A stretch of 64,000 nucleotides of DNA from an uncultured Alphaproteobacteria bacterium (GCA_963775575.1 CAVZJG010000003.1:492963-556962); one strand, 5' to 3'; positions 808 through 24,455 are shown, counted from the stretch's first letter. Numbers and translations are program-made. Notes: generated by a model not told the origin, from the letters alone.

Positions 808-1791
808 TCACGGTCGGCGCGCCTCGCTCAGCGGCAATGGCAACAGCGGTCCCGCGCCGGCGCCGAGCGTCGCGTCCCGCCCCCGCTCGATCGCGCTGCG
901 CACAAATTCCTTGGCCGCCGCGACCGCCTCGGGCAACGACGCGCCCAAGACGACGTGCGCGGCGATCGCGCTCGACAGCGTGCAGCCGGCGCCGTGCAGG
1001 TTGCGCGAGTCTAGGCGCGGCGCGGCGAACCGCCGGACGGCGTCGGCCGTGACCAGCAGATCGACCGCCTCGGCGCCGGGAAGATGCCCGCCCTTCATCA
1101 ACACGGCGCGCGGGCCGAGCTTCACCAGCGCCGCGCCCTGGCGCGCCATCTCCGCTTCGCCCCTTGCCAGCGGCGCGCCGACCAGCGCCGCGGCTTCCGC
1201 GAGATTGGGGGTCAGGCAGTCGACCAGCGGCAGCAACCGGGCTTTGACCGCCTCGATGAGCCCCGCGCCCGCGAGCGCGTCCCCGGACGAAGCGACCATG
1301 ACGGGATCGTAGACGAGGAAGGGCGCCCGCCCCTTCCCCCCTTGCGGGGGAAGGTGGTCAGGCGAAGCCTGGCCGGATGAGGGGTCGCGCCGCGAGGCGC
1401 GCGTTTCGACAACGGCGCTGCCGCGCCGACCCCTCACCCCTAACCCCTCTCCCGCAAGGGAAGAGAGGAGCGGGCGCCCCAAGCTCCTCGCCACGGCCGC
1501 CACCACCGCCGCGCTCCCCAGCATGCCGATCTTGATCGCCGCGACGTCGAAATCGGCCAGCACGGCTTCGATCTGCGCGGCGACGATGTCGGGCGGGCAG
1601 ATGTGGATCGCGTCGACGCCCAGCGTGTTCTGCGCGGTGAGCGCCGTGATTGCGCTCGCCCCGTAGACGCCGAGCGCGGCGAAAGTCTTCAGGTCCGCCT
1701 GAACCCCGGCGCCGCCGCCCGAATCCGAGCCGGCGATCGTCAACGCGATGGGCGTTTGCGCCGTCACGGCGCGCGGGTCGCGGCGATCCAT
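808..1791 (-). CDS. thiD: hydroxymethylpyrimidine/phosphomethylpyrimidine kinase ThiD, carrying a 49-codon in-frame repeat insertion
   Basis: Motifs [33 protein letters not shown] and [13 protein letters not shown]. Start is ATG 1791; an alternative GTG 1767 overlaps the thiE stop as GTGA. The upstream part of ORF 808..1941 is Arg-rich shadow sequence. Confidence 0.9.
1324..1470. repeat. REP/mosaic-type palindromic element, copy inside the thiD coding sequence
   Basis: Shares the modules TCAGGCG, GCCGGATGAGGGG, CCCTCACCCC and CTCTCCCGC-type hairpins with the element at 2372-2500, in opposite orientation. It is 147 nt, exactly 49 codons, in frame. Confidence 0.7.
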
Positions 1792-2369
1792 GCGCGGGCG
1801 CGGCCCTCGGGATCGGGGTTGAGCGTGATGTCGGTGACGACGGCGGCGCTGTCGGCGCCGGCGGCGAGACACGCGAGGGCGCGTTCGAGGTTGAGCCCGC
1901 CGATCGCGACCAGCGGCATGGCGCCGACGCGGCGCTTCCACTCGCCGATCTGCGTCAGGCCCTGGGGCAGATGCGCCATCGCTTTCGTGATCGTCGGATA
2001 GATCGGGCCGAGCGCGACGTAGTCGGGCGCCAGCGCCAGCGCGCGCTCGAGTTCCGCTTCGTCGTGGGTGCTGAGGCCGAGCCTGAGCCCGGCGCGGCGG
2101 ATGGCGCCGACGTCCGCGCCTTCATCGAGATCGCCCTGGCCAAGGTGGACCCAGGGCGCGCCTTCGTCGATAGCGACCCGCCAATAGTCGTTGACCACCA
2201 GGGTCGCGCCTGCGGCGCGGCAGACCGCCAGCGCCGCGCGCGTCTCGCGACCCGCCGTCGCCTCGTCTTTGTCTTTGACGCGCAACTGGATGAGCCGCGC
2301 GCCGACGCCGACGAGCCGGCGGACCCAGTCGGCGGAATCGACGATCGGGTAGAAGCGGTCGAGAGTCAT
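1764..2369 (-). CDS. thiE: thiamine-phosphate synthase
   Basis: MTLDRFYPIVDS..., LIQLRVKD, YVALGPIYPT and PLVAIGG are typical ThiE motifs. Confidence 0.93.
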   Translation of the reverse strand: MTLDRFYPIVDSADWVRRLVGVGARLIQLRVKDKDEATAGRETRAALAVCRAAGATLVVNDYWRVAIDEGAPWVHLGQGDLDEGADVGAIRRAGLRLGLSTHDEAELERALALAPDYVALGPIYPTITKAMAHLPQGLTQIGEWKRRVGAMPLVAIGGLNLERALACLAAGADSAAVVTDITLNPDPEGRARAWIAATRAP

Positions 2370-2371
2370 AG

Positions 2372-2500
2372 GCCCCTCTCCCGCGTGCGGGAGACGGGTT
2401 GGGGTGAGGGCCGCCGGGCGCTCCCCTCATCCGGCCCTTCGGGCCGCCTCTCAGCGAACGAGACGTTCGCCTGACACCCGCAAGCGGGAGAAGGGAAAGA
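2372..2500. repeat. REP/mosaic-type palindromic element, intergenic copy between thiG and thiE
   Basis: Nested hairpins (CTCTCCCGCGTGCGGGAGA, GGGGTGAGGG...CCCCTCATCC, CCCGCAAGCGGG). Same module set as 1324-1470. Confidence 0.7.
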
Positions 2501-2511
2501 AGCCGCGCCGC

Positions 2512-3282
2512 TCACGACAGCGCCGCCTTGCCGACGAACGGCGTCGAGGGCTGGGCGAGGTCGCGCGGCTGCATCGGGCCGGCGCGATGGGCGGCGGCGC
2601 CGGCTTCGACCGCCTCTTTGAACGCGCGCGCCATCGCGACCGGATCGCCCGCCGTGCCGACCGCGGTGTTGAGCAGCACCGCGTCGTAGCCGAACTCCAT
2701 CGCCGCCGCGGCGTGCGACGGCAGGCCGATGCCGGCGTCGACGATCAGCGTCGCCTCGGGATAGCGCGCCCGCAGCAGGCGCAAGCCGAAGGGATTGTTG
2801 AGGCCCTTGCCGGAGCCGATCGGCGCGCCCCACGGCATCAACGTCTTGCAGCCCGCCTCGATAAGCCGGTCGCAGACGATCAGGTCTTCGGTCGTGTAGG
2901 GAAACACCTCGAAGCCGTCTCGAGCGAGGATGCGCGCGGCCTCGACCGTGCCGAAGACGTCGGGCGCGAGCGTATCGCGGTCGCCGATCACTTCGAGCTT
3001 GATCCAGGCGGTGGCGAAAATCTCGCGCGCCATCTGCGCCGTCGTCACCGCCTCCTTGACCGTGTAGCATCCGGCGGTGTTGGGCAGCACGCGCACGCCG
3101 AGGTCGTGGATGATGCGCCAGAACTCCTGCCCCTCGCGAAATTGGCTCAACTCGCGCCGCACCGAAACCGTGACGACTTCCGCCTCCGCCGCCCGCACGG
3201 ACTTGGCCATGAGGTCGAGCGAGGCGTACTTCGACGTTCCGAGCAGCAGCCGAGACTTCAATGCGACGCCATAGACCTTCAT
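2512..3282 (-). CDS. thiG: thiazole synthase
   Basis: 256 aa, [19 protein letters not shown]...VLPNTAGC...[13 protein letters not shown]. Confidence 0.95.
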
Positions 3283-3340
3283 CGCTCAACTCCTCGCCCC
3301 CGCGCCGCCGCCCGCACCCTCGCTCCATCGCGCCGGCGGC

Positions 3341-3538
3341 CTATCCCCCTTGCCGCGGCGCGACGATCTCGATCCGATCGCCTTCGCTTAAGCTCGTCTC
3401 GGCGCGCTTTCGCGCCGGCACGAAGTCGCCGTTGAGCGCGGTGCCGACCAGCGTTTCTGCGTAATCGAGCGCCTCGAGCGCCGCCGCCAAGGTCTCGGCG
3501 ACGACGTCCTGTTCGACGCCATTGACGACGAGCCTCAT
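3341..3538 (-). CDS. thiS: sulfur-carrier protein ThiS
   Basis: 65 aa, MRLVVNGVEQ...IEIVAPRQGG, with the C-terminal GG. It is the tail of ORF 3341..4075. ATG at 3538 lies 11 nt after the thiC stop. Confidence 0.9.
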   Translation of the reverse strand: MRLVVNGVEQDVVAETLAAALEALDYAETLVGTALNGDFVPARKRAETSLSEGDRIEIVAPRQGG

Positions 3539-3549
3539 CTCCGCCTCGC

Positions 3550-5566
<2,017 letters not shown>

Positions 5567-5581
5567 TGAGGGGGATTTTGC

Positions 5582-5606
5582 GGTAGTGGGCCAGTTTGAA
5601 TGTGGC
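5582..5606. repeat. left terminal inverted repeat of the IS1-family element
   Basis: GGTAGTGGGCCAGTTTGAATGTGGC is the exact reverse complement of 9485-9509. Confidence 0.9.
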
Positions 5607-5966
5607 AGGCAAAATGCATAGTGCGATTGAAACAATTCGTCACACCGCGCGACAAACAATGGACGGATGCCCAAAAGCGGGATAAAAAAAATTAGGCATT
5701 CGTTAACAAATTAACATTCCGTTAACGGTTGTTTAACCGACGGAGCATAAATGGGATGCTTGTGGGAGACGGACCATGCAGCGATCGACAAATGGCGACC
5801 GGGTGAACCGCGAGGCCAGTATCGCTACGCGCGGATTATCGGCATCGGGCTCGCCTGCAAAGGGAAACTTACCGGACGATAAAACTAGCATGATTGTTCG
5901 TAACCCGGCACCGGACGGATCGCCGCCGCGTGCCAATTCGGATGTTCGAACATTTTCGGTCAGCAG

Positions 5967-6827
5967 CTAGTTCTCATCCGGTAGCACGTACTCAGCCCAA
6001 CTGACATGCAAAACCCTGGTCGTGCCTCGGAGCGAGACCGGATGGGCTCGACCGTTGGTGAAGTGACCAACGGTCGGCGGATTGTTTGATTCCAAAAGAT
6101 TCAAATCGAAGGTGCTCCCATCCCTCCTAATTCCCGCAGAATCGGAGTCCGTTACGATGCGCACCACGGCCGGCGCATACGTTGCACCGGCTCGGCGAAT
6201 ACCAAGGGCACGGTGAAATCCATTGTGAAGGTAGTAGCGATTGTTATAACAAACAACATGCAAAAACGGCAAGGAGACGGCAAATTGCAGGCCCATAAAC
6301 TGCGCGTTAAAAATTCCCGCCGCAAGTGATCGAAGGTTCAGGTTTTTCGTTTTCAGCAACATGGATTGATTTTGTTGCGTATTGCTATGTTGTAAGACCT
6401 GAAAATTTACAATTTCTGGGTTTGTTGGCAGACATAGAGCTAATAATGTATCAAGACTTGGCGGTTTGTTTAGGTTCGTGCAATGGTAATTGCTGCGATC
6501 ATCATCAATAGTGAATTGATAGGCTAGCAGCGGATCAAGCTCTACTAGCTGAAACGTAACGCCGGCGAGCGTTGTCTGAAATGCCGGTGCGGACCATGGC
6601 GCTGTTAGGACTTGTTGAACGTGGGGATCGTGAGTCGGTGGAATTGGTTGAATATCGGGTATTCCTGCGTTAGCGACTGGGGCGCCAAGTCGTGCTCTGG
6701 CCGCATTCCATTCCGCCAAAATTGCTACGTCGGAAGGGTCAGCAGGAACGCAGGCAGTTCGCAAATGCGCCATTGCCTGTTGCTGATCCATGAAACCGAC
6801 CAACGATAAACCTGGTGTGGCCATCAC
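5967..6827 (-). CDS. hypothetical protein with a possible ParB/Srx(DGQHR)-like C-terminal region, IS passenger
   Basis: 286-aa ORF in low-GC DNA, 18 nt downstream of and co-oriented with the transposase. The segment VVCYNNRYYLHNGFHRALGIRRAGATYAPAVV resembles the beta-strand plus (D/N)G.HR motif of ParB/sulfiredoxin/DndB-type folds. Confidence 0.6.
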   Translation of the reverse strand: MMATPGLSLVGFMDQQQAMAHLRTACVPADPSDVAILAEWNAARARLGAPVANAGIPDIQPIPPTHDPHVQQVLTAPWSAPAFQTTLAGVTFQLVELDPLLAYQFTIDDDRSNYHCTNLNKPPSLDTLLALCLPTNPEIVNFQVLQHSNTQQNQSMLLKTKNLNLRSLAAGIFNAQFMGLQFAVSLPFLHVVCYNNRYYLHNGFHRALGIRRAGATYAPAVVRIVTDSDSAGIRRDGSTFDLNLLESNNPPTVGHFTNGRAHPVSLRGTTRVLHVSWAEYVLPDEN

Positions 6828-6845
6828 TTTTCCCCAACACCATCG

Positions 6846-7700
6846 TTAAGATGTCGCCTCCCACGCTTCAAGCACTGCGACCATATCCGCGACTTCCCAG
6901 AGCCGATCCGTCACGTCGGCAGCCATCGCCGGCGTCGTTTTGAGCGTCTTATGGATACGCACAAAATTGTAATAGAGGAAGTGCAACGCCATCGCGTGCG
7001 CGTGGTTTTCCATCTTTTTTGAAAAGGCATTCGTCAGCCGCGTCATTCGGCGAGAGTGCATGCGAATGTTGAGGTTGTTTCTCTCGGCAAATGATGTGCT
7101 GGCGTATGCCATATCAGGATTGCCCTGAATGCGCGTCTTGCGGGCGCCGAGGCATTCTGCGGGGCTATAGCGTCCGCGTGTAGCCTCGGGCGCGGTCCCG
7201 TAAATCTTGACCAGCATCGCGTAATCGACCTCTCCGCCAAATGCTGCGTCGATGGCGGTCACATACGGCGCGTGGCCGTCGGTTGTGATCTGGACGCAAC
7301 TCGCGAGACGCGAGGCAAGATCGTCGATAAACTCTTGCGCCGCGTCCGCGTCCCGGCTGCCAACGTGCCAGCACGGAACAAGCTTCGTGTCGGCGTCGGT
7401 TGCAAGCCAAAGCCACACATCGCCAGCAGTTCCCGCCGTCTTGGCTTCGTCTGAGGCGTTCTTTGCCTTGGCGCCGACGAAACCCCAGATTTCGTCGATT
7501 TGGAGTTTCTTGCACGAAAGGCTCTGGAAAACGCGGTCCTGATACCAAGCCGCGGCCGTGCCAGCATCGACAACCAACTTGCTAACAGTCGTCTTGGATA
7601 TGCCCGTTAGGCGGGTGATGGCGCGGATGCTCATGCCCTCGCAGAGAAGGTGAAGGGCTTGGGCGCGTTCGGCGGGGCTCAGCTTATTCATACTGGCCAT
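6846..7700 (-). CDS. IS1-family transposase (single ORF)
   Basis: N-terminal HTH (SIRAITRLTGISKTTVSKL), DEIWGFV, TDGHAPY, and FAERNNLNIRMHSRRMTRLTNAFSKK (IS1 signature ER.N...R....R..R.T..FSK). Start MASMNKL at 7700. Confidence 0.88.
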   Translation of the reverse strand: MASMNKLSPAERAQALHLLCEGMSIRAITRLTGISKTTVSKLVVDAGTAAAWYQDRVFQSLSCKKLQIDEIWGFVGAKAKNASDEAKTAGTAGDVWLWLATDADTKLVPCWHVGSRDADAAQEFIDDLASRLASCVQITTDGHAPYVTAIDAAFGGEVDYAMLVKIYGTAPEATRGRYSPAECLGARKTRIQGNPDMAYASTSFAERNNLNIRMHSRRMTRLTNAFSKKMENHAHAMALHFLYYNFVRIHKTLKTTPAMAADVTDRLWEVADMVAVLEAWEATS

Positions 7701-7777
7701 TATGCTTGCGCCTTGACATTTAGTCAAGACCATAAATTCATAGGAGCACATAAATTTATAGCGCACAATAAATAGGT

Positions 7778-9004
7778 GTGACAATGGCCTTGTCGATACC
7801 GCCCTTTGCGAACCCATTTCGACCCGGCGCGGGGCACCGGCCGCCGTATCTGGCGGGCCGGAAACATGAAGAAGGCGAGTTTCGCAAGCTTCTCGCGCAG
7901 AATGTGGTCTTGGACAATTTGGTAATTACGGGCTTGCGCGGCGTTGGCAAGACCGTTCTCGCCGAGAGTTTTAAGCCGACAGCTGTTCATGAAGGATGGC
8001 TTTGGGTCGGGACCGACATGTCAGAGTCCGCGGTCGTAACGGAATCGATACTCGCAGAACGCATTTTGACTGACTTGTCCGTCGTGACAAGTAATATATC
8101 GACTGGTACAACTCATCAATTGTCCTTCGGCTTTGTCAGCAAAGAAAACGCAGGAGAGATCACTCTCGGCTATAACACGCTATCGTCTATATATAAGAAC
8201 GCTCCCGGCCTTGTCTCGGATAAATTAAAAGCGGTCTTTTCCGCGGTTGCACCGCATGTCACGCGTATCGGGAAGAGAGGATTGCTATTCGTATATGATG
8301 AAGCGCAAAGTTTGGCAGATCGGGACGATGCAAAAGAGTATCCCCTTTCAGTGCTGCTAGATATTTTTCAGAGCGTTCAACGGAACGGTATGCCATTTAT
8401 TCTTGTACTTATTGGGTTACCGACGCTGTACCAGAAGCTCGTCGATTCGCGAACATACTCTGAGCGTATGTTTAAGACGCTCACGCTGAAAAAGCTCTCA
8501 GTGGAAGCAAGCCGCGAGGCAATCACCAAGCCAATTTCTGATGCTAAATGCCCGGTAAAATTTTCAGATGAGGCGATCTCGCTAATAATCAAATATTCCG
8601 GTGGATATCCTTATTTTATACAATTCATGTGTCGTGAAGTGTATGATGTATGGATGCAAAAACTTGCAGAGGGGCAGGAGCCAATTGTACCAATGAGCGA
8701 AATTGTGAGAAAGCTAGATAATGATTTCTTTGCCCATCGATGGTATAAGGTGACCGAGCGCTATCACGAGTTGCTACATGTGATTGCACAACTAGACAAT
8801 AGTAACGATGTTTTTACGATTCAAGATATATTAAGACAATCAGTGCGTATCAATGAAACGTTTGGTCGAAGTCGAGTGAATCAAATGCTAGTGACTCTTA
8901 TGGAGCATGGCATCGTATATAAGGATAGACATGGTAAGTACATGTTCGCGGTCCCGCTCTTTGCGGATTTTGTGAGACGCATCAAAGAGACGGGAATTTT
9001 ATGA
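7778..9004 (+). CDS. AAA+/ORC-Cdc6-like ATP-binding protein with C-terminal winged-helix-like region, IS passenger
   Basis: N-terminal NPFRPGAGHRPPYLAGR, Walker A GLRGVGKT, Walker B LLFVYDEAQ, and a C-terminal helical/wHTH-like tail. GTG 7778 or ATG 7784 as start. Confidence 0.8.
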   Translation: MTMALSIPPFANPFRPGAGHRPPYLAGRKHEEGEFRKLLAQNVVLDNLVITGLRGVGKTVLAESFKPTAVHEGWLWVGTDMSESAVVTESILAERILTDLSVVTSNISTGTTHQLSFGFVSKENAGEITLGYNTLSSIYKNAPGLVSDKLKAVFSAVAPHVTRIGKRGLLFVYDEAQSLADRDDAKEYPLSVLLDIFQSVQRNGMPFILVLIGLPTLYQKLVDSRTYSERMFKTLTLKKLSVEASREAITKPISDAKCPVKFSDEAISLIIKYSGGYPYFIQFMCREVYDVWMQKLAEGQEPIVPMSEIVRKLDNDFFAHRWYKVTERYHELLHVIAQLDNSNDVFTIQDILRQSVRINETFGRSRVNQMLVTLMEHGIVYKDRHGKYMFAVPLFADFVRRIKETGIL

Positions 9005-9244
9005 TTTTGACCATCGCTTTGCGGCCGCGATGCGAGCAATTTCAGTACGACGCTCTGGCGAAAGCGCGTTGGCGCGAGCCTTCCCACCGCTGGCGGCGCC
9101 TAACTTGCCATAGTGAGAAAATTGCAACTCATTGACGTCTGTGTCTGCGGTCGGCACATCGTCGCCAGTCTCGCCAGTCGCGATATCGACCATGCGTTTC
9201 GCCCATTGGTTCAAATCGCGCGGGCGCTTGGGAGTCTTAGCCAT
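8999..9244 (-). CDS. small hypothetical protein (81 aa), basic C-terminus ...GGKARANALSPERRTEIARIAAAKRW
   Basis: Low-GC ORF. It overlaps the upstream small ORF by 8 nt, suggesting an operon. Confidence 0.5.
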   Translation of the reverse strand: MAKTPKRPRDLNQWAKRMVDIATGETGDDVPTADTDVNELQFSHYGKLGAASGGKARANALSPERRTEIARIAAAKRWSKS

Positions 9245-9434
9245 ATCGGCCGCCTCGATAGTTTTTGAGCCAGTCGGCCGCTTTAGTGGCGATCCAATCT
9301 CTTGCCCTAGTTTCTGTCTCGAAACCGCTCATTTGGATTTGCTCGCCGTGGGGAAGCGTAATTCGAACATACCATCCCGGTTCGGCCTTTAGCTGGACCG
9401 GCTCAAATTTTGTCTGAGGCTTGGACCTCACCAT
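9237..9434 (-). CDS. small hypothetical protein (65 aa)
   Basis: Low-GC ORF starting about 50 nt inside the right IR. It is followed by 8999..9244 with an 8-nt overlap. Confidence 0.5.
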   Translation of the reverse strand: MVRSKPQTKFEPVQLKAEPGWYVRITLPHGEQIQMSGFETETRARDWIATKAADWLKNYRGGRYG

Positions 9435-9484
9435 GCTCCCATTATGGGGAAAGCCGGGCTACGCCGCTAGCGCAAAATTTCGCC

Positions 9485-9509
9485 GCCACATTCAAACTGG
9501 CCCACTACC
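9485..9509. repeat. right terminal inverted repeat of the IS1-family element
   Basis: GCCACATTCAAACTGGCCCACTACC is the exact reverse complement of 5582-5606. Confidence 0.9.
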
Positions 9510-9662
9510 GATTTTGCCGCCTTCGCATTGCGGAATTCGATTGGCTCTCGCGGCTCGCTCCGCCAAAGCAGGCCAGGGCGGCGCCTGCCTCGTTCTTCTT
9601 CGTGGCGCGAACCCGAAGCGCTCGGCTTGCGCTTCGGCCCGGCCTCATCCTAAAAGCGGCCC

Positions 9663-10187
9663 ATGCGCCGTCTCTTGCTTCTCCGACACGCCAAGGCGAT
9701 GCACCCTGCGGGGCGCGGCGATTACGAGCGCGCCCTGGTCGAGCGCGGGCGGCGCGACGCCGCTCGCATCGGCGCCTTCCTCGCCGAGGCGGGCATGATC
9801 CCGGACCTGGCGATCTTCTCGGGCGCGCTGCGCACGCGGGAAACGGCGGCGATCGTCCTCAAGGCGTGGCCGCAGCGGATCGAAGCGCGCGCGGAGCCGA
9901 GCCTCTACGACGCGACGCGCGCCAGCGTCCAGGCGATCGTTCGCGCCCTTCCCGATACGGCGGCGAGCGTCTTGCTGATCGGCCACAACCCTGGACTGGC
10001 GGATCTGGCCAACCATCTGGTCGGCGGCGGCGCCGAGCGCGATATCGCGCGCATGGTCGGCAAGTTCCCGACCGCGGGCCTGGCGGCGCTCGAATTCGAC
10101 TTCAACCGCTGGCGCGAGGTCGCGCCCGGTTCGGCGCGGCTCGCCCGCTTCGTCACGCCCGACGATCTGAGCGTCGCCAGCGGGTGA
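9663..10187 (+). CDS. SixA-like histidine phosphatase
   Basis: MRRLLLLRHAKA (RHG/RHA catalytic motif), ..RTRETA.., LLIGHNPGL. Confidence 0.85.
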   Translation: MRRLLLLRHAKAMHPAGRGDYERALVERGRRDAARIGAFLAEAGMIPDLAIFSGALRTRETAAIVLKAWPQRIEARAEPSLYDATRASVQAIVRALPDTAASVLLIGHNPGLADLANHLVGGGAERDIARMVGKFPTAGLAALEFDFNRWREVAPGSARLARFVTPDDLSVASG

Positions 10188-10326
10188 GCGGGCGTGATTT
10201 CCCGAGTGGAACCGGCGAAGTCGCGCGGACACATCGCCCCTGCGCCGTCAAGCGGCTAGCGCCGCTCCTCCGCTGCGCTACGGCCGCTTCGCGGTGACCG
10301 CGCCGGAGCGATGCGTCATTGGGCAT

Positions 10327-10490
10327 CCAAGGTCTTGTTGCGACTTCCGGCCCATCGGGCCGGAATGCGCAACAAGACCTTGGAAGCGAAAACGCCCGAA
10401 CCGCGCACAGCGGTCAAGCCTCGCATTTCGCGACCGCGTCAGCGGCGCTTTGCTCGTCAGAGCAAAGCGGGCTTGACGGCGAGCGCGGTT
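10327..10490. repeat. partial third copy of the structured repeat family (57-nt perfect hairpin plus the CTTGACGGCGA tail)
   Basis: CCAAGGTCTTGTTGCGACTTCCGGCCCATCGGGCCGGAATGCGCAACAAGACCTTGG (10327-10383) has the same architecture as the hairpins at 19388-19445 and 24289-24355. The GGCTTGACGGCGAGCGC tail is shared with 19571-19590 and 24424-24440. It lies between the convergent sixA-like and alaS genes. Confidence 0.6.
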
Positions 10491-19240: not shown

Positions 19241-19600
19241 CTAGCGGATTCACACATCCAAGTTCGATATCTTCCGGGTCCGCTGTGCCTGATCCGTGCT
19301 CGGCGTCAAGGCCAAGCCCGTTTCACGGGTCGCTCGCTCACGCTCGCGAGCCTTGACTCCTGCGCGCGGCTCAGGCTGTCGGCTACTGTGATCATTGCTG
19401 CGCAAGCCGGCCATGCGGCCGGCTTCGCTCAGCAACGATCGCAGTAGCAAGACCGCCGCCGGAACGGCGCTGGCGCCTCAAGGCGAACGCGTAGCGTTCG
19501 TCCGGGCGAAGCGGGCGAAGCGCAGCGGAGCAGCCGCGGAACGGCGGCCGAACGCTACGCGTTCGCCTGGACTTGACGGCGACGCGCCGATGCGGCCGTC
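19241..19600. repeat. structured ~330-bp repeat, copy A
   Basis: Aligns with 24142-24455. A long identical stretch is CTTCCGGGTCCGCTGTGCCTGATCCGTGCTCGGCGTCAA. Several hairpins carry compensatory changes. Confidence 0.75.
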
Positions 19601-24141: not shown

Positions 24142-24455
24142 CTAGAGCTACCGGATTCACGCATCGCAATTCGATGCCTTCCGGGTCCGCTGTGCCTGAT
24201 CCGTGCTCGGCGTCAATGTCGAGCCCGCTTCGCGGGTTGCTCGCTTCGCTCGCAAACATATGACCCCTCCGCGCGGCTCAGGCTCTTCGTTTCCATGATC
24301 TTTGTTGAGCAGGCCGGCCCTGTGGGCCGGCCTGCTCAACAAAGATCATGGAAACAAAACCGCCGCATCGGCGCGTCGCGGTCACCGCGGGGCGGGCGTA
24401 GCGCAGCGGAGCAGCCGCGCAGCGGCTTGACGGCGACGCGCCGATGTGGCCGCCG
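24142..24455. repeat. structured ~330-bp repeat, copy B
   Basis: Same orientation as copy A. Contains a perfect 31-bp-arm hairpin at 24289-24355. Confidence 0.75.

Follow-up and report, generated by a model that had tools for sequence, protein, structure and literature searches.

The stretch of DNA analysed here (64,000 nucleotides from an uncultured Alphaproteobacteria bacterium, GCA_963775575.1 CAVZJG010000003.1:492963-556962, hereafter "the window") carries at positions 5582-9509 a 3,928-bp segment that very probably is an insertion sequence (IS) of the IS1 family with passenger genes. It lies in a divergent intergenic region, between thiC (- strand) and a gene for a SixA-like histidine phosphatase (9663-10187); alaS is also present in the flanks. 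The G+C content is about 0.52 within the segment and about 0.70 around it (ranges 0.39-0.61 and 0.65-0.75, respectively), with a minimum in the 3' half of a gene for an AAA+ ATPase. In addition to this ATPase, the segment encodes a transposase, a protein of an orphan family (orfA), and two small open reading frames (ORFs), s81 and s65. Features are listed in Table 1.

Table 1. Features of the IS1-family element in the window.
Feature	Position	Strand	Basis
Left copy of the target site duplication (TSD), GATTTTGC	5574..5581	.	Sequence; single copy in the empty site (contig L025)
Terminal inverted repeat (IR), slot-2 (orfA) end, GGTAGTGGGCCAGTTTGAATGTGGC, tip GGTAGTG	5582..5606	+	Exact 25-mer at element ends in 10 other genomes
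orfA, slot 2, 285-286 aa, orphan family	5967..6827	-	Weak ParB/Srx-like core in the C-terminal half
IS1-family transposase, single ORF, 281 aa	6846..7691	-	Pfam PF03400; BLASTP against IS1B InsAB'
Predicted, conserved transposase promoter: TTGACT (7727-7722), 17 nt, CATAAT (7704-7699)	7699..7727	-	Scan, 10/12
AAA+ ATPase, slot 1, 406 aa, C-terminal winged helix	7784..9004	+	Pfam, PHROG, Foldseek
s81, 81-aa backbone protein	8999..9244	-	ORF of about 80 aa conserved in position in relatives
s65, 65-aa small ORF, IR-proximal	9237..9434	-	Position-equivalent ORFs in relatives
Terminal IR, s81 end, perfect complement of 5582-5606	9485..9509	-	
Right copy of the TSD, GATTTTGC	9510..9517	.	Sequence; single copy in the empty site (contig L025)

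The 25-bp IRs are perfect, and directly outside both of them stands the same 8-bp direct repeat. With up to 3 mismatches allowed, the 25-mer is found twice in the window, and not at all in 100 shuffled sequences. Complementarity of the two ends apparently extends one base further out (C5581/G9510), because the target bases are duplicated; the IRs of related elements begin at GG, with 8-bp duplications in every case. Both tips read GGTAGTG, to be compared with GGTGATG and GGTAATG in IS1B.

Metagenome contigs were then scanned with the 22-mer predicted for the empty site, and 3 matches were obtained. Two of them (L023, L024) were discarded as chance matches of the 22-mer, having no homology to the window. 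The third, Ga0182014_10023918 (L025), aligns with window positions 4518-5581 (95.7% identity) and then runs straight into 9510-10187 (92.4%). The two alignments overlap by exactly 8 bases, GATTTTGC, present in one copy only. A related strain thus has the target uninterrupted, and compared with it the window has gained 3,928 bp and a second copy of the 8-mer. The same insertion was found, by means of a flanking gene, in GCA_049288155.1 (99.97% identity) and in two Logan contigs; no empty site occurs among these three other assemblies with an identical flanking gene, all of which carry the IS, two of the contigs ending inside it. Three Logan contigs of the same organism (L012, L013, L037) are cut off within the IS, the breakpoints being window positions 9384 and 9238 and a site in the ATPase gene; such breaks could reflect low coverage, or the presence in those samples of other elements sharing the backbone.

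The only transposase of the segment is a DDE protein with an N-terminal helix-turn-helix (HTH) and a catalytic domain (DEIWGF ... TTDG ... AERNNLN), encoded by one ORF without zinc finger or frameshift. With the Pfam model DDE_Tnp_IS1 the protein reaches 37.1 bits (gathering score 24.1), and HTH_23 and HTH_38 match the N-terminus. Using as a reference the InsAB' fusion of IS1B from plasmid R100, BLASTP gives 22% identity (E 1e-6) over a region spanning the HTH and the motifs DE(Q/I)WG(Y/F)VGAK, TDG and ER(H/N)NLN(L/I)R. This alignment begins at IS1 residue 50: the first 49 residues of IS1, which contain the zinc finger, have no counterpart, and the N-terminus is devoid of a Cys motif. Between the second D and the E, about 45 residues are present in excess of IS1. 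Its homologs number more than 8000, carry the source name "IS1 family transposase" and are 280-295 aa long, so that the 323-aa ORF obtained by mechanical listing was rejected as too long. All family-invariant residues are present in the full-length ORF.

Translation of the transposase could start at ATG 7691 (281 aa) or at an ATG at position 7700 (284 aa). The -10 box of the predicted promoter ends 7 nt before ATG 7691, where the start ATGAAYAAG is conserved, and the arrangement is kept in 8 related elements; the sequence 5' of the -35 box is not conserved. Conservation of the promoter and the 7-nt spacing therefore favour ATG 7691. The same spacing suggests that the transposase mRNA is leaderless or has a very short leader.

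Transposase, ends, TSD and empty site thus agree, and we estimate at about 90% the probability that 5582-9509 is a single IS1-family transposable element carrying passenger genes, a so-called transporter IS (tIS). A preliminary description of the locus, made from the sequence alone, had proposed an intact IR-bounded IS1-family element with extra genes, GGnnnTG termini, perfect 25-bp IRs abutted by GATTTTGC on both sides, and a single-ORF IS1-type DDE gene as the sole transposase, and had pointed to the empty site as a way to check it. These proposals were borne out: ends and duplication lie at the positions it gave, the transposase passes the PF03400 threshold and aligns with InsAB', and the uninterrupted site holds GATTTTGC once.

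By analogy with DDE transposases and IS1, transposition would involve the following steps. The conserved promoter would drive the transposase, whose HTH would bind the GGTAGTG... ends; the DDE site would cleave at the 3' ends and then join them to target DNA with an 8-bp stagger, the repair of which would create the TSD, and the whole content between the IRs would move along.

We next examined related elements. The exact 25-mer is present in 10 other species-level genomes, mostly metagenome-assembled genomes (MAGs) of Hyphomicrobiales and one Methylobacter MAG. Relatives were gathered from these genomes and from the genetic contexts of transposase homologs, and 11 further insertions were found that possess both ends, with the same or similar IRs, and an 8-bp TSD (Table 2). 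No obvious consensus emerges from the 12 TSDs. The plasmid copies and the IMG/VR copy are more distant relatives. Judging from these relatives, the unit that moves is the whole IR-bounded segment. Three insertions (L005, L009, L010) are short, non-autonomous derivatives of 1.1-1.5 kb, which keep the 5' part of s81 and have no intact transposase. The short derivatives, one of them in a gammaproteobacterial (Methylobacter) MAG, suggest mobilisation in trans and spread across classes.

Table 2. Related elements with both ends and an 8-bp TSD, and the genes found in their two cargo slots (E-values after the protein or model name; aa, amino acids).
Element	Source	Position	Length	TSD	Slot 1	Slot 2
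L005	Alphaproteobacterial MAG	2853-4112	1,260 bp	GCCTGGCG		
L009	Alphaproteobacterial MAG	1893-3413	1,521 bp	GACGAGCG		
L010	Methylobacter MAG	366-1478	1,113 bp	AAAACCTC		
L021	Rhizobiales bacterium GAS113	3366-6680	3,315 bp	CAGCGTTC	P63C-domain protein	PD-T4-5/AbiD-like, 2e-15
L022	Alphaproteobacterial MAG	4327-8442	4,116 bp	CTTAGACG	ParA-like ATPase	Two unknown ORFs
L026	ENA/NCBI assembly contig	4379-7780	3,402 bp	AAGCAGTT	P63C-domain protein	232-aa unknown
L027	ENA assembly contig	3850-7574	3,725 bp	GGAACGGC	HEC-04 ABC-type ATPase, 4e-45	Trypsin-like protease
L031	Mesorhizobium loti plasmid	1796-5165	3,370 bp	CGCTGGTG	PD-Lambda-2_B-like HTH/M78 protein, 2e-49, and 159-aa partner	None identified
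L033	Hoeflea plasmid	1555-5778	4,224 bp	GATGATTG	RmrT, 1e-97, and RmrA, 3e-191 (complete Rosmer system)	Weak PD-T4-9_A-like
L034	Acidiphilium plasmid	2267-4900	2,634 bp	AAGCCGAG	SDH/ClpP-like protease	Empty
L061	IMG/VR contig	1815-5786	3,972 bp	ATCGGTTT	Type II restriction enzyme, 2e-150, and methyltransferase, 1e-121	Transposase abuts IR

When all full-length elements were oriented from the s81 end, a common order appeared: IR, small ORF, s81, a first cargo slot (slot 1), transposase promoter and gene, an optional second slot (slot 2), and IR. Genes in slot 1 are usually encoded on the opposite strand. A conserved stretch, ATTTT...CTAGCG...CATAnT, directly follows the IR at the s81 end. Slot 1 is occupied by the ATPase gene in the window element and slot 2 by orfA.

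s81 is considered as part of the backbone because all related elements examined have it in one and the same place; in each full-length relative it starts 263-286 nt from the IR. Both extremities of the protein are conserved (N-terminus KRPRDLNQWAKRMVDIATGE; C-terminus GGKARA..LSPERR.EIA..AA.KRW for s81 and GGKARA..L.PE.R.EIA.KAA..RW for the ORFs of about 80 aa taken together), and the N-terminal part is kept in the three short derivatives. No relative of s81 was found in Pfam, NCBIfam or the PDB; one plasmid copy is annotated "histone H1". As the only conserved protein besides the transposase, s81 may bind DNA and act as an accessory or regulatory factor, perhaps one so far unrecognised for IS1-family elements of this branch. 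Closer to the IR, five full-length elements and the short L009 have a small ORF of 60-75 aa, whose start is 49-77 nt away from the repeat. These IR-proximal ORFs belong to at least 3 unrelated sequence types, with the CATAnT motif conserved just upstream: those of L027 and L009 are zinc-ribbon-like (CxxC...CxxC), and equivalents are also found in L021, L022 and L026. This position may be a third exchangeable slot. Accordingly, the four passengers counted in the preliminary description are reduced to two clear ones, the ATPase and the 286-aa orfA, since s81 belongs to the backbone and s65 fills the conserved small-ORF position.

Homologous recombination, acting on the s81 and transposase segments that different elements have conserved, would be the probable route of cargo exchange. 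It fits with the observation that the slot boundaries coincide with the s81 stop and the transposase -35 box. In the window element, the stop of s81 overlaps that of the slot-1 gene by 6 bp.

The cargo of the relatives was compared with the defence models of PADLOC-DB 2.0 (Table 2), and is dominated by recognised or suspected anti-phage genes. A truncated copy (L001) also carries a dCTP-deaminase-like gene (DCD, 3e-34) beside its IR. As a complete Rosmer system, a restriction-modification (R-M) system and other defence systems stand on IS1-type elements with a fixed chassis, an IS with one transposase can spread immunity genes. Such defence-carrying elements are found in Hyphomicrobiales, in Acetobacteraceae, and even in a Methylobacter MAG. 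Some neighbourhoods are of note as well. A RES-toxin/Xre-antitoxin pair lies directly outside the Acidiphilium element (L034, 4883-5721), and a Shedu nuclease gene with UvrD/AAA genes lies beside a Methylocapsa element (L032, 464-1642), which has no matching TSD and is adjoined by an IS5; both ISs seem to be located in defence-rich neighbourhoods. At another locus (L008, 4625-6606), a solo or partial IR copy precedes a piece of a phage-type methyltransferase-like ORF; then comes an ISAzo13-like DDE transposase gene (5341-6606), which may interrupt that ORF.

Several points weigh against the reading of the window segment as a mobile IS1-family carrier of exchangeable, defence-type cargo. The NCBIfam model transpos_IS1 (NF033558) matches the transposase with an E-value of 3e-18 and 66.5 bits, under the cut-off of 100, and both the zinc finger and the frameshift of IS1 are missing; for these reasons the transposase, by its sequence, is a distant, single-ORF member of the family. 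The sample of relatives, about 11, was not randomly drawn, and slot 1 is filled in all full-length relatives examined, so that no cargo-less ancestor was seen among them. No convincing PADLOC match was obtained for the cargo of the window element, the ATPase reaching at best E 0.006 (PDC-S01) and 0.018 (BrxD); orfA, s81 and s65 gave no match. Finally, all four assemblies of this organism share the insertion, and neither a second copy, nor an excision product, nor a polymorphic insertion was seen.

This last point bears on the age and mobility of the element. Further copies were found neither in the window nor on contigs whose ATPase is identical or whose transposase has a single residue changed. 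The preliminary description had taken the perfect IRs, with the intact TSD, as signs of a recent and probably still mobile unit, an argument that does not hold for the IRs because the exact 25-mer is identical across genera, so that IR perfection does not inform on age. The element might then be a fixed, immobile relic, whose perfect ends reflect conservation throughout the family; its single copy, in the window as in all assemblies found, and the insertion shared by four assemblies would be expected of a relic. We nevertheless consider it unlikely, although with appreciable weight, given that the transposase is full-length with all family-invariant residues, that its promoter is intact, that both IRs and the TSD are perfect, and that the insertion arose after the divergence of the lineage of L025, which still has 92-97% identity in the flanks. 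For the IS1-family element with passengers, which we favour, present-day transposition is possible, as judged from its intact genes and ends.

The two clear cargo genes were then analyzed separately. The orfA protein has 337 close homologs and no Pfam domain; a profile search among 1.84 billion representatives returned about 1427 clusters, and the 150 matches listed are family members only, without any bridge to ParB. A profile search of the PDB gave 0 matches. The AlphaFold2 (AF2) model (predicted local distance difference test, pLDDT, 91.7) was compared by Foldseek with the PDB and with BFVD (viral proteins). The top 19 PDB matches and most of the leading BFVD ones are ParB/Srx proteins, over 35-75 residues with E-values of 0.02-2.5, so that neither library contains a significant structural match. 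A motif HNGFHR (residues 201-206) is nearly invariant, and resembles the (D/N)GxHR motif of the ParB/Srx superfamily. Among 43 family members, none matches Pfam ParBc, and 39 show a weak match to the VapB-like PF23719 at the HNGFHR region. The "ParB/Srx-like ORF" of the preliminary description is thus plausible from the predicted fold, though weakly supported: all the top Foldseek matches are to ParB/Srx, with E-values of at least 0.02, and there is no Pfam ParB match.

The two genes could in principle form one two-gene system, split by the transposase and co-selected as a pair. They do sit within the same element, the slot-1 ATPase and slot-2 protease of L027 may be read as a pair too, and an orfA homolog 73% identical lies again downstream of a decayed IS1-type transposase (L058). 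No orfA is present, however, at 19 viral and 2 chromosomal loci of the ATPase, and the orfA loci L014, L057 and L058 are without ATPase. More distant orfA homologs stand alone, and relatives of the element carry other genes at the orfA position. We therefore rejected an obligate pair, for lack of co-occurrence elsewhere, and regard a co-selected pair as quite improbable.

The slot-1 protein is an ATPase with a Walker A motif GLRGVGKT. In Pfam, AAA_22 passes its threshold (28.7 vs 27), AAA_16 (30.4 vs 32.6) and ATPase_2 (PF01637; 18.9 vs 33.2) remain below gathering, and a weak MCM_C/winged-HTH match is present at the C-terminus. PHROG 6841 is matched at 8e-55. There are more than 7000 homologs, nearly all annotated as hypothetical. 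The AF2 model, built from 45 sequences (pLDDT 86.4), was compared by Foldseek: best matches are the archaeal Walker-type ATPases 2qen and 2fna (E 2e-11, TM 0.53-0.56), Orc1/Cdc6 proteins come next (1e-10 to 1e-9), and TnsC structures are much lower (ranks 26, 40 and 43). The model thus supports an Orc1/Cdc6-like or archaeal PF01637-type fold, with AAA+ core, lid and C-terminal winged helix, and the "ORC/Cdc6-like ATPase" of the preliminary description is upheld as far as the fold is concerned. Sequence identity with the PF01637-type proteins (PABY2304, 2qen; SSO1545, 2fna) and with Orc1/Cdc6 is 14-17%, with Pfam scores below threshold, and unlike Orc1/Cdc6 initiators the ATPase is a solitary accessory gene of bacteria, phages and this IS, with nothing pointing to a role at replication origins.

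Homologs about 60% identical to this ATPase are solitary genes of lower G+C content, inserted between housekeeping genes, with no IS or transposase nearby. Homologs are also found in 19 IMG/VR viral contigs without any IS1-type transposase. On one phage contig (L041), the gene separates the portal gene from the head protease gene and runs on the opposite strand, a position typical of morons. For the lone homologs of L017 (6001-7209), L019 (6001-7218) and L041 (4986-6227), which are 50-60% identical, the spacers at housekeeping sites are of only 5-90 bp. Upstream of the window gene, a scan of the 7713-7783 spacer detected no sigma-70 promoter. A palindrome, CTTGAC-ATTTA-GTCAAG (7712-7728), holds both the -35 box of the transposase (TTGACT, - strand) and a plus-strand TTGACA facing the ATPase gene, and may be a shared regulatory site; on the plus strand no -10 box was found at proper spacing; a similar sequence, TTGACAGTTAGTC, is present upstream of the solitary homolog of L019.

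An ATPase encoded next to a transposase calls to mind the target selectors and regulators TnsC, MuB and IstB, in which case the element would be a two-protein transposon. The ATPase gene is divergent from the transposase gene and 83-92 bp apart from it, TnsC structures do occur among its fold matches, and weak matches to AAA_22, IstB and a PHROG "DNA transposition protein" were recorded (E 0.04-0.09). Yet relatives whose transposases are 75-81% identical hold unrelated genes in slot 1 (P63C, ParA-like, ABC ATPase, Rosmer, R-M), the homologs 50-64% identical are found by themselves, in phages or flanked by housekeeping genes, without a transposase in the vicinity, and the top folds are Orc1/Cdc6 and archaeal PF01637-type proteins rather than TnsC. 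With slot content this variable and homologs solitary, a TnsC- or IstB-like helper was rejected, a role in transposition being very improbable. Least tenable of all is a scenario that the preliminary description had named among its own refutations, a 25-bp dispersed host repeat unrelated to the transposase, which would make the 8-bp repeat a coincidence: beyond being possible a priori it has nothing in its favour and is excluded, given that the window holds two copies only, exactly where the G+C content drops, that elsewhere the 25-mer always ends elements encoding or derived from this transposase with 8-bp TSDs of their own, and that the empty site lacks everything between the repeats.

For the passengers of this IS1-family element, we put at about even odds that the ATPase and orfA are, independently of each other, conflict or defence genes borne by the IS and not transposition factors, because the slots of relatives hold anti-phage systems and the ATPase has a moron-like distribution. 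More tentatively, and with the odds somewhat against it, the clade as a whole might be a widespread, mainly alphaproteobacterial, minimal shuttle of defence genes, made of a conserved chassis and two hot-swappable slots that prefer anti-phage systems. If so, the ATPase (more than 7000 homologs) and orfA (about 1400 clusters) would be new single-gene defence or conflict genes, s81 would represent a novel accessory factor in transposition of the IS1 type, and the cargo of the clade would be a resource for discovery comparable to integron cassettes or Tn7 cargo. Two large unannotated protein families are marked as defence candidates.

The element was finally compared with known systems. With IS1 (IS1A/IS1B of Enterobacteria), it shares a DDE transposase homologous over HTH and catalytic core, terminal IRs beginning with GGTnnTG, and an 8-bp target duplication, that of IS1 being of 8-9 bp; its assignment to the family follows from the InsAB'-homologous transposase, the GGnnnTG tips and the TSD. 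It differs from IS1 by its size (3.9 kb instead of 768 bp), by a single ORF of 281-284 aa instead of insA and insB' fused through a -1 frameshift, by the absence of the N-terminal zinc finger, by an additional conserved 81-aa gene and two cargo slots, and by a transposase of 22% identity. The combination of two ORFs, frameshift and zinc finger which characterizes the canonical IS1 subgroup is not found in it. Like the single-ORF and ISMhu11 subgroups of the family, it departs from the two-ORF design. In the ISfinder family table, IS1 members reach about 4.6 kb, and the ISMhu11 group, brought up in the preliminary description and of which the element is a candidate member, ranges from about 0.9 to 4.6 kb, implying extra genes. 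ISMhu11 entries have two ORFs with a frameshift, an organisation that would be at odds with the single-ORF transposase.

As in transporter ISs (tIS of ISfinder/TnCentral), one transposase, IRs and passenger genes form a single unit, here of the IS1 family and with fixed cargo positions: all 3,928 bp and one 8-bp target copy are missing from the empty site, and relatives that combine the same backbone with other inner genes each show an 8-bp TSD of their own. Tn7-like transposons are described (Benler et al. 2021, PMC8649781) as having variable cargo rich in defence systems. The present lineage resembles them in its variable, defence-rich cargo. Unlike Tn7-like elements, which are large, site-specific and encode TnsABC with a target selector, it consists of ISs with one transposase and no evident target consensus among the 12 TSDs. 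Taken singly, the window element is ordinary, one more IS1-family insertion, and the added value is in the pattern of the lineage; a limited literature search found no published description of an IS1 lineage with a fixed chassis and defence slots.

At the insertion site, a thiamine pyrophosphate (TPP) riboswitch (RF00059, 72.5 bits) precedes thiC at 5429-5533 on the - strand, and TTGACA at 5566-5561 is a plausible -35 box for this gene. The core promoter of thiC was probably spared, because the IS lies 8 bp upstream of this candidate -35 box, with any upstream elements displaced. The insertion may thus affect expression of the riboswitch-controlled thiC operon in the host. Elsewhere in the window, an intergenic repeat of about 190 bp is present twice, at 10225-10416 and 24261-24453, in inverted orientation and with 76% identity, and a 33-bp fragment of it at 19506-19538. 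It contains a long hairpin (CCAAGGTCTTGTTGCG...CGCAACAAGACCTTGG, 10323-10387), and looks like a REP (repetitive extragenic palindromic) or MITE (miniature inverted-repeat transposable element)-like element unrelated to the IS.

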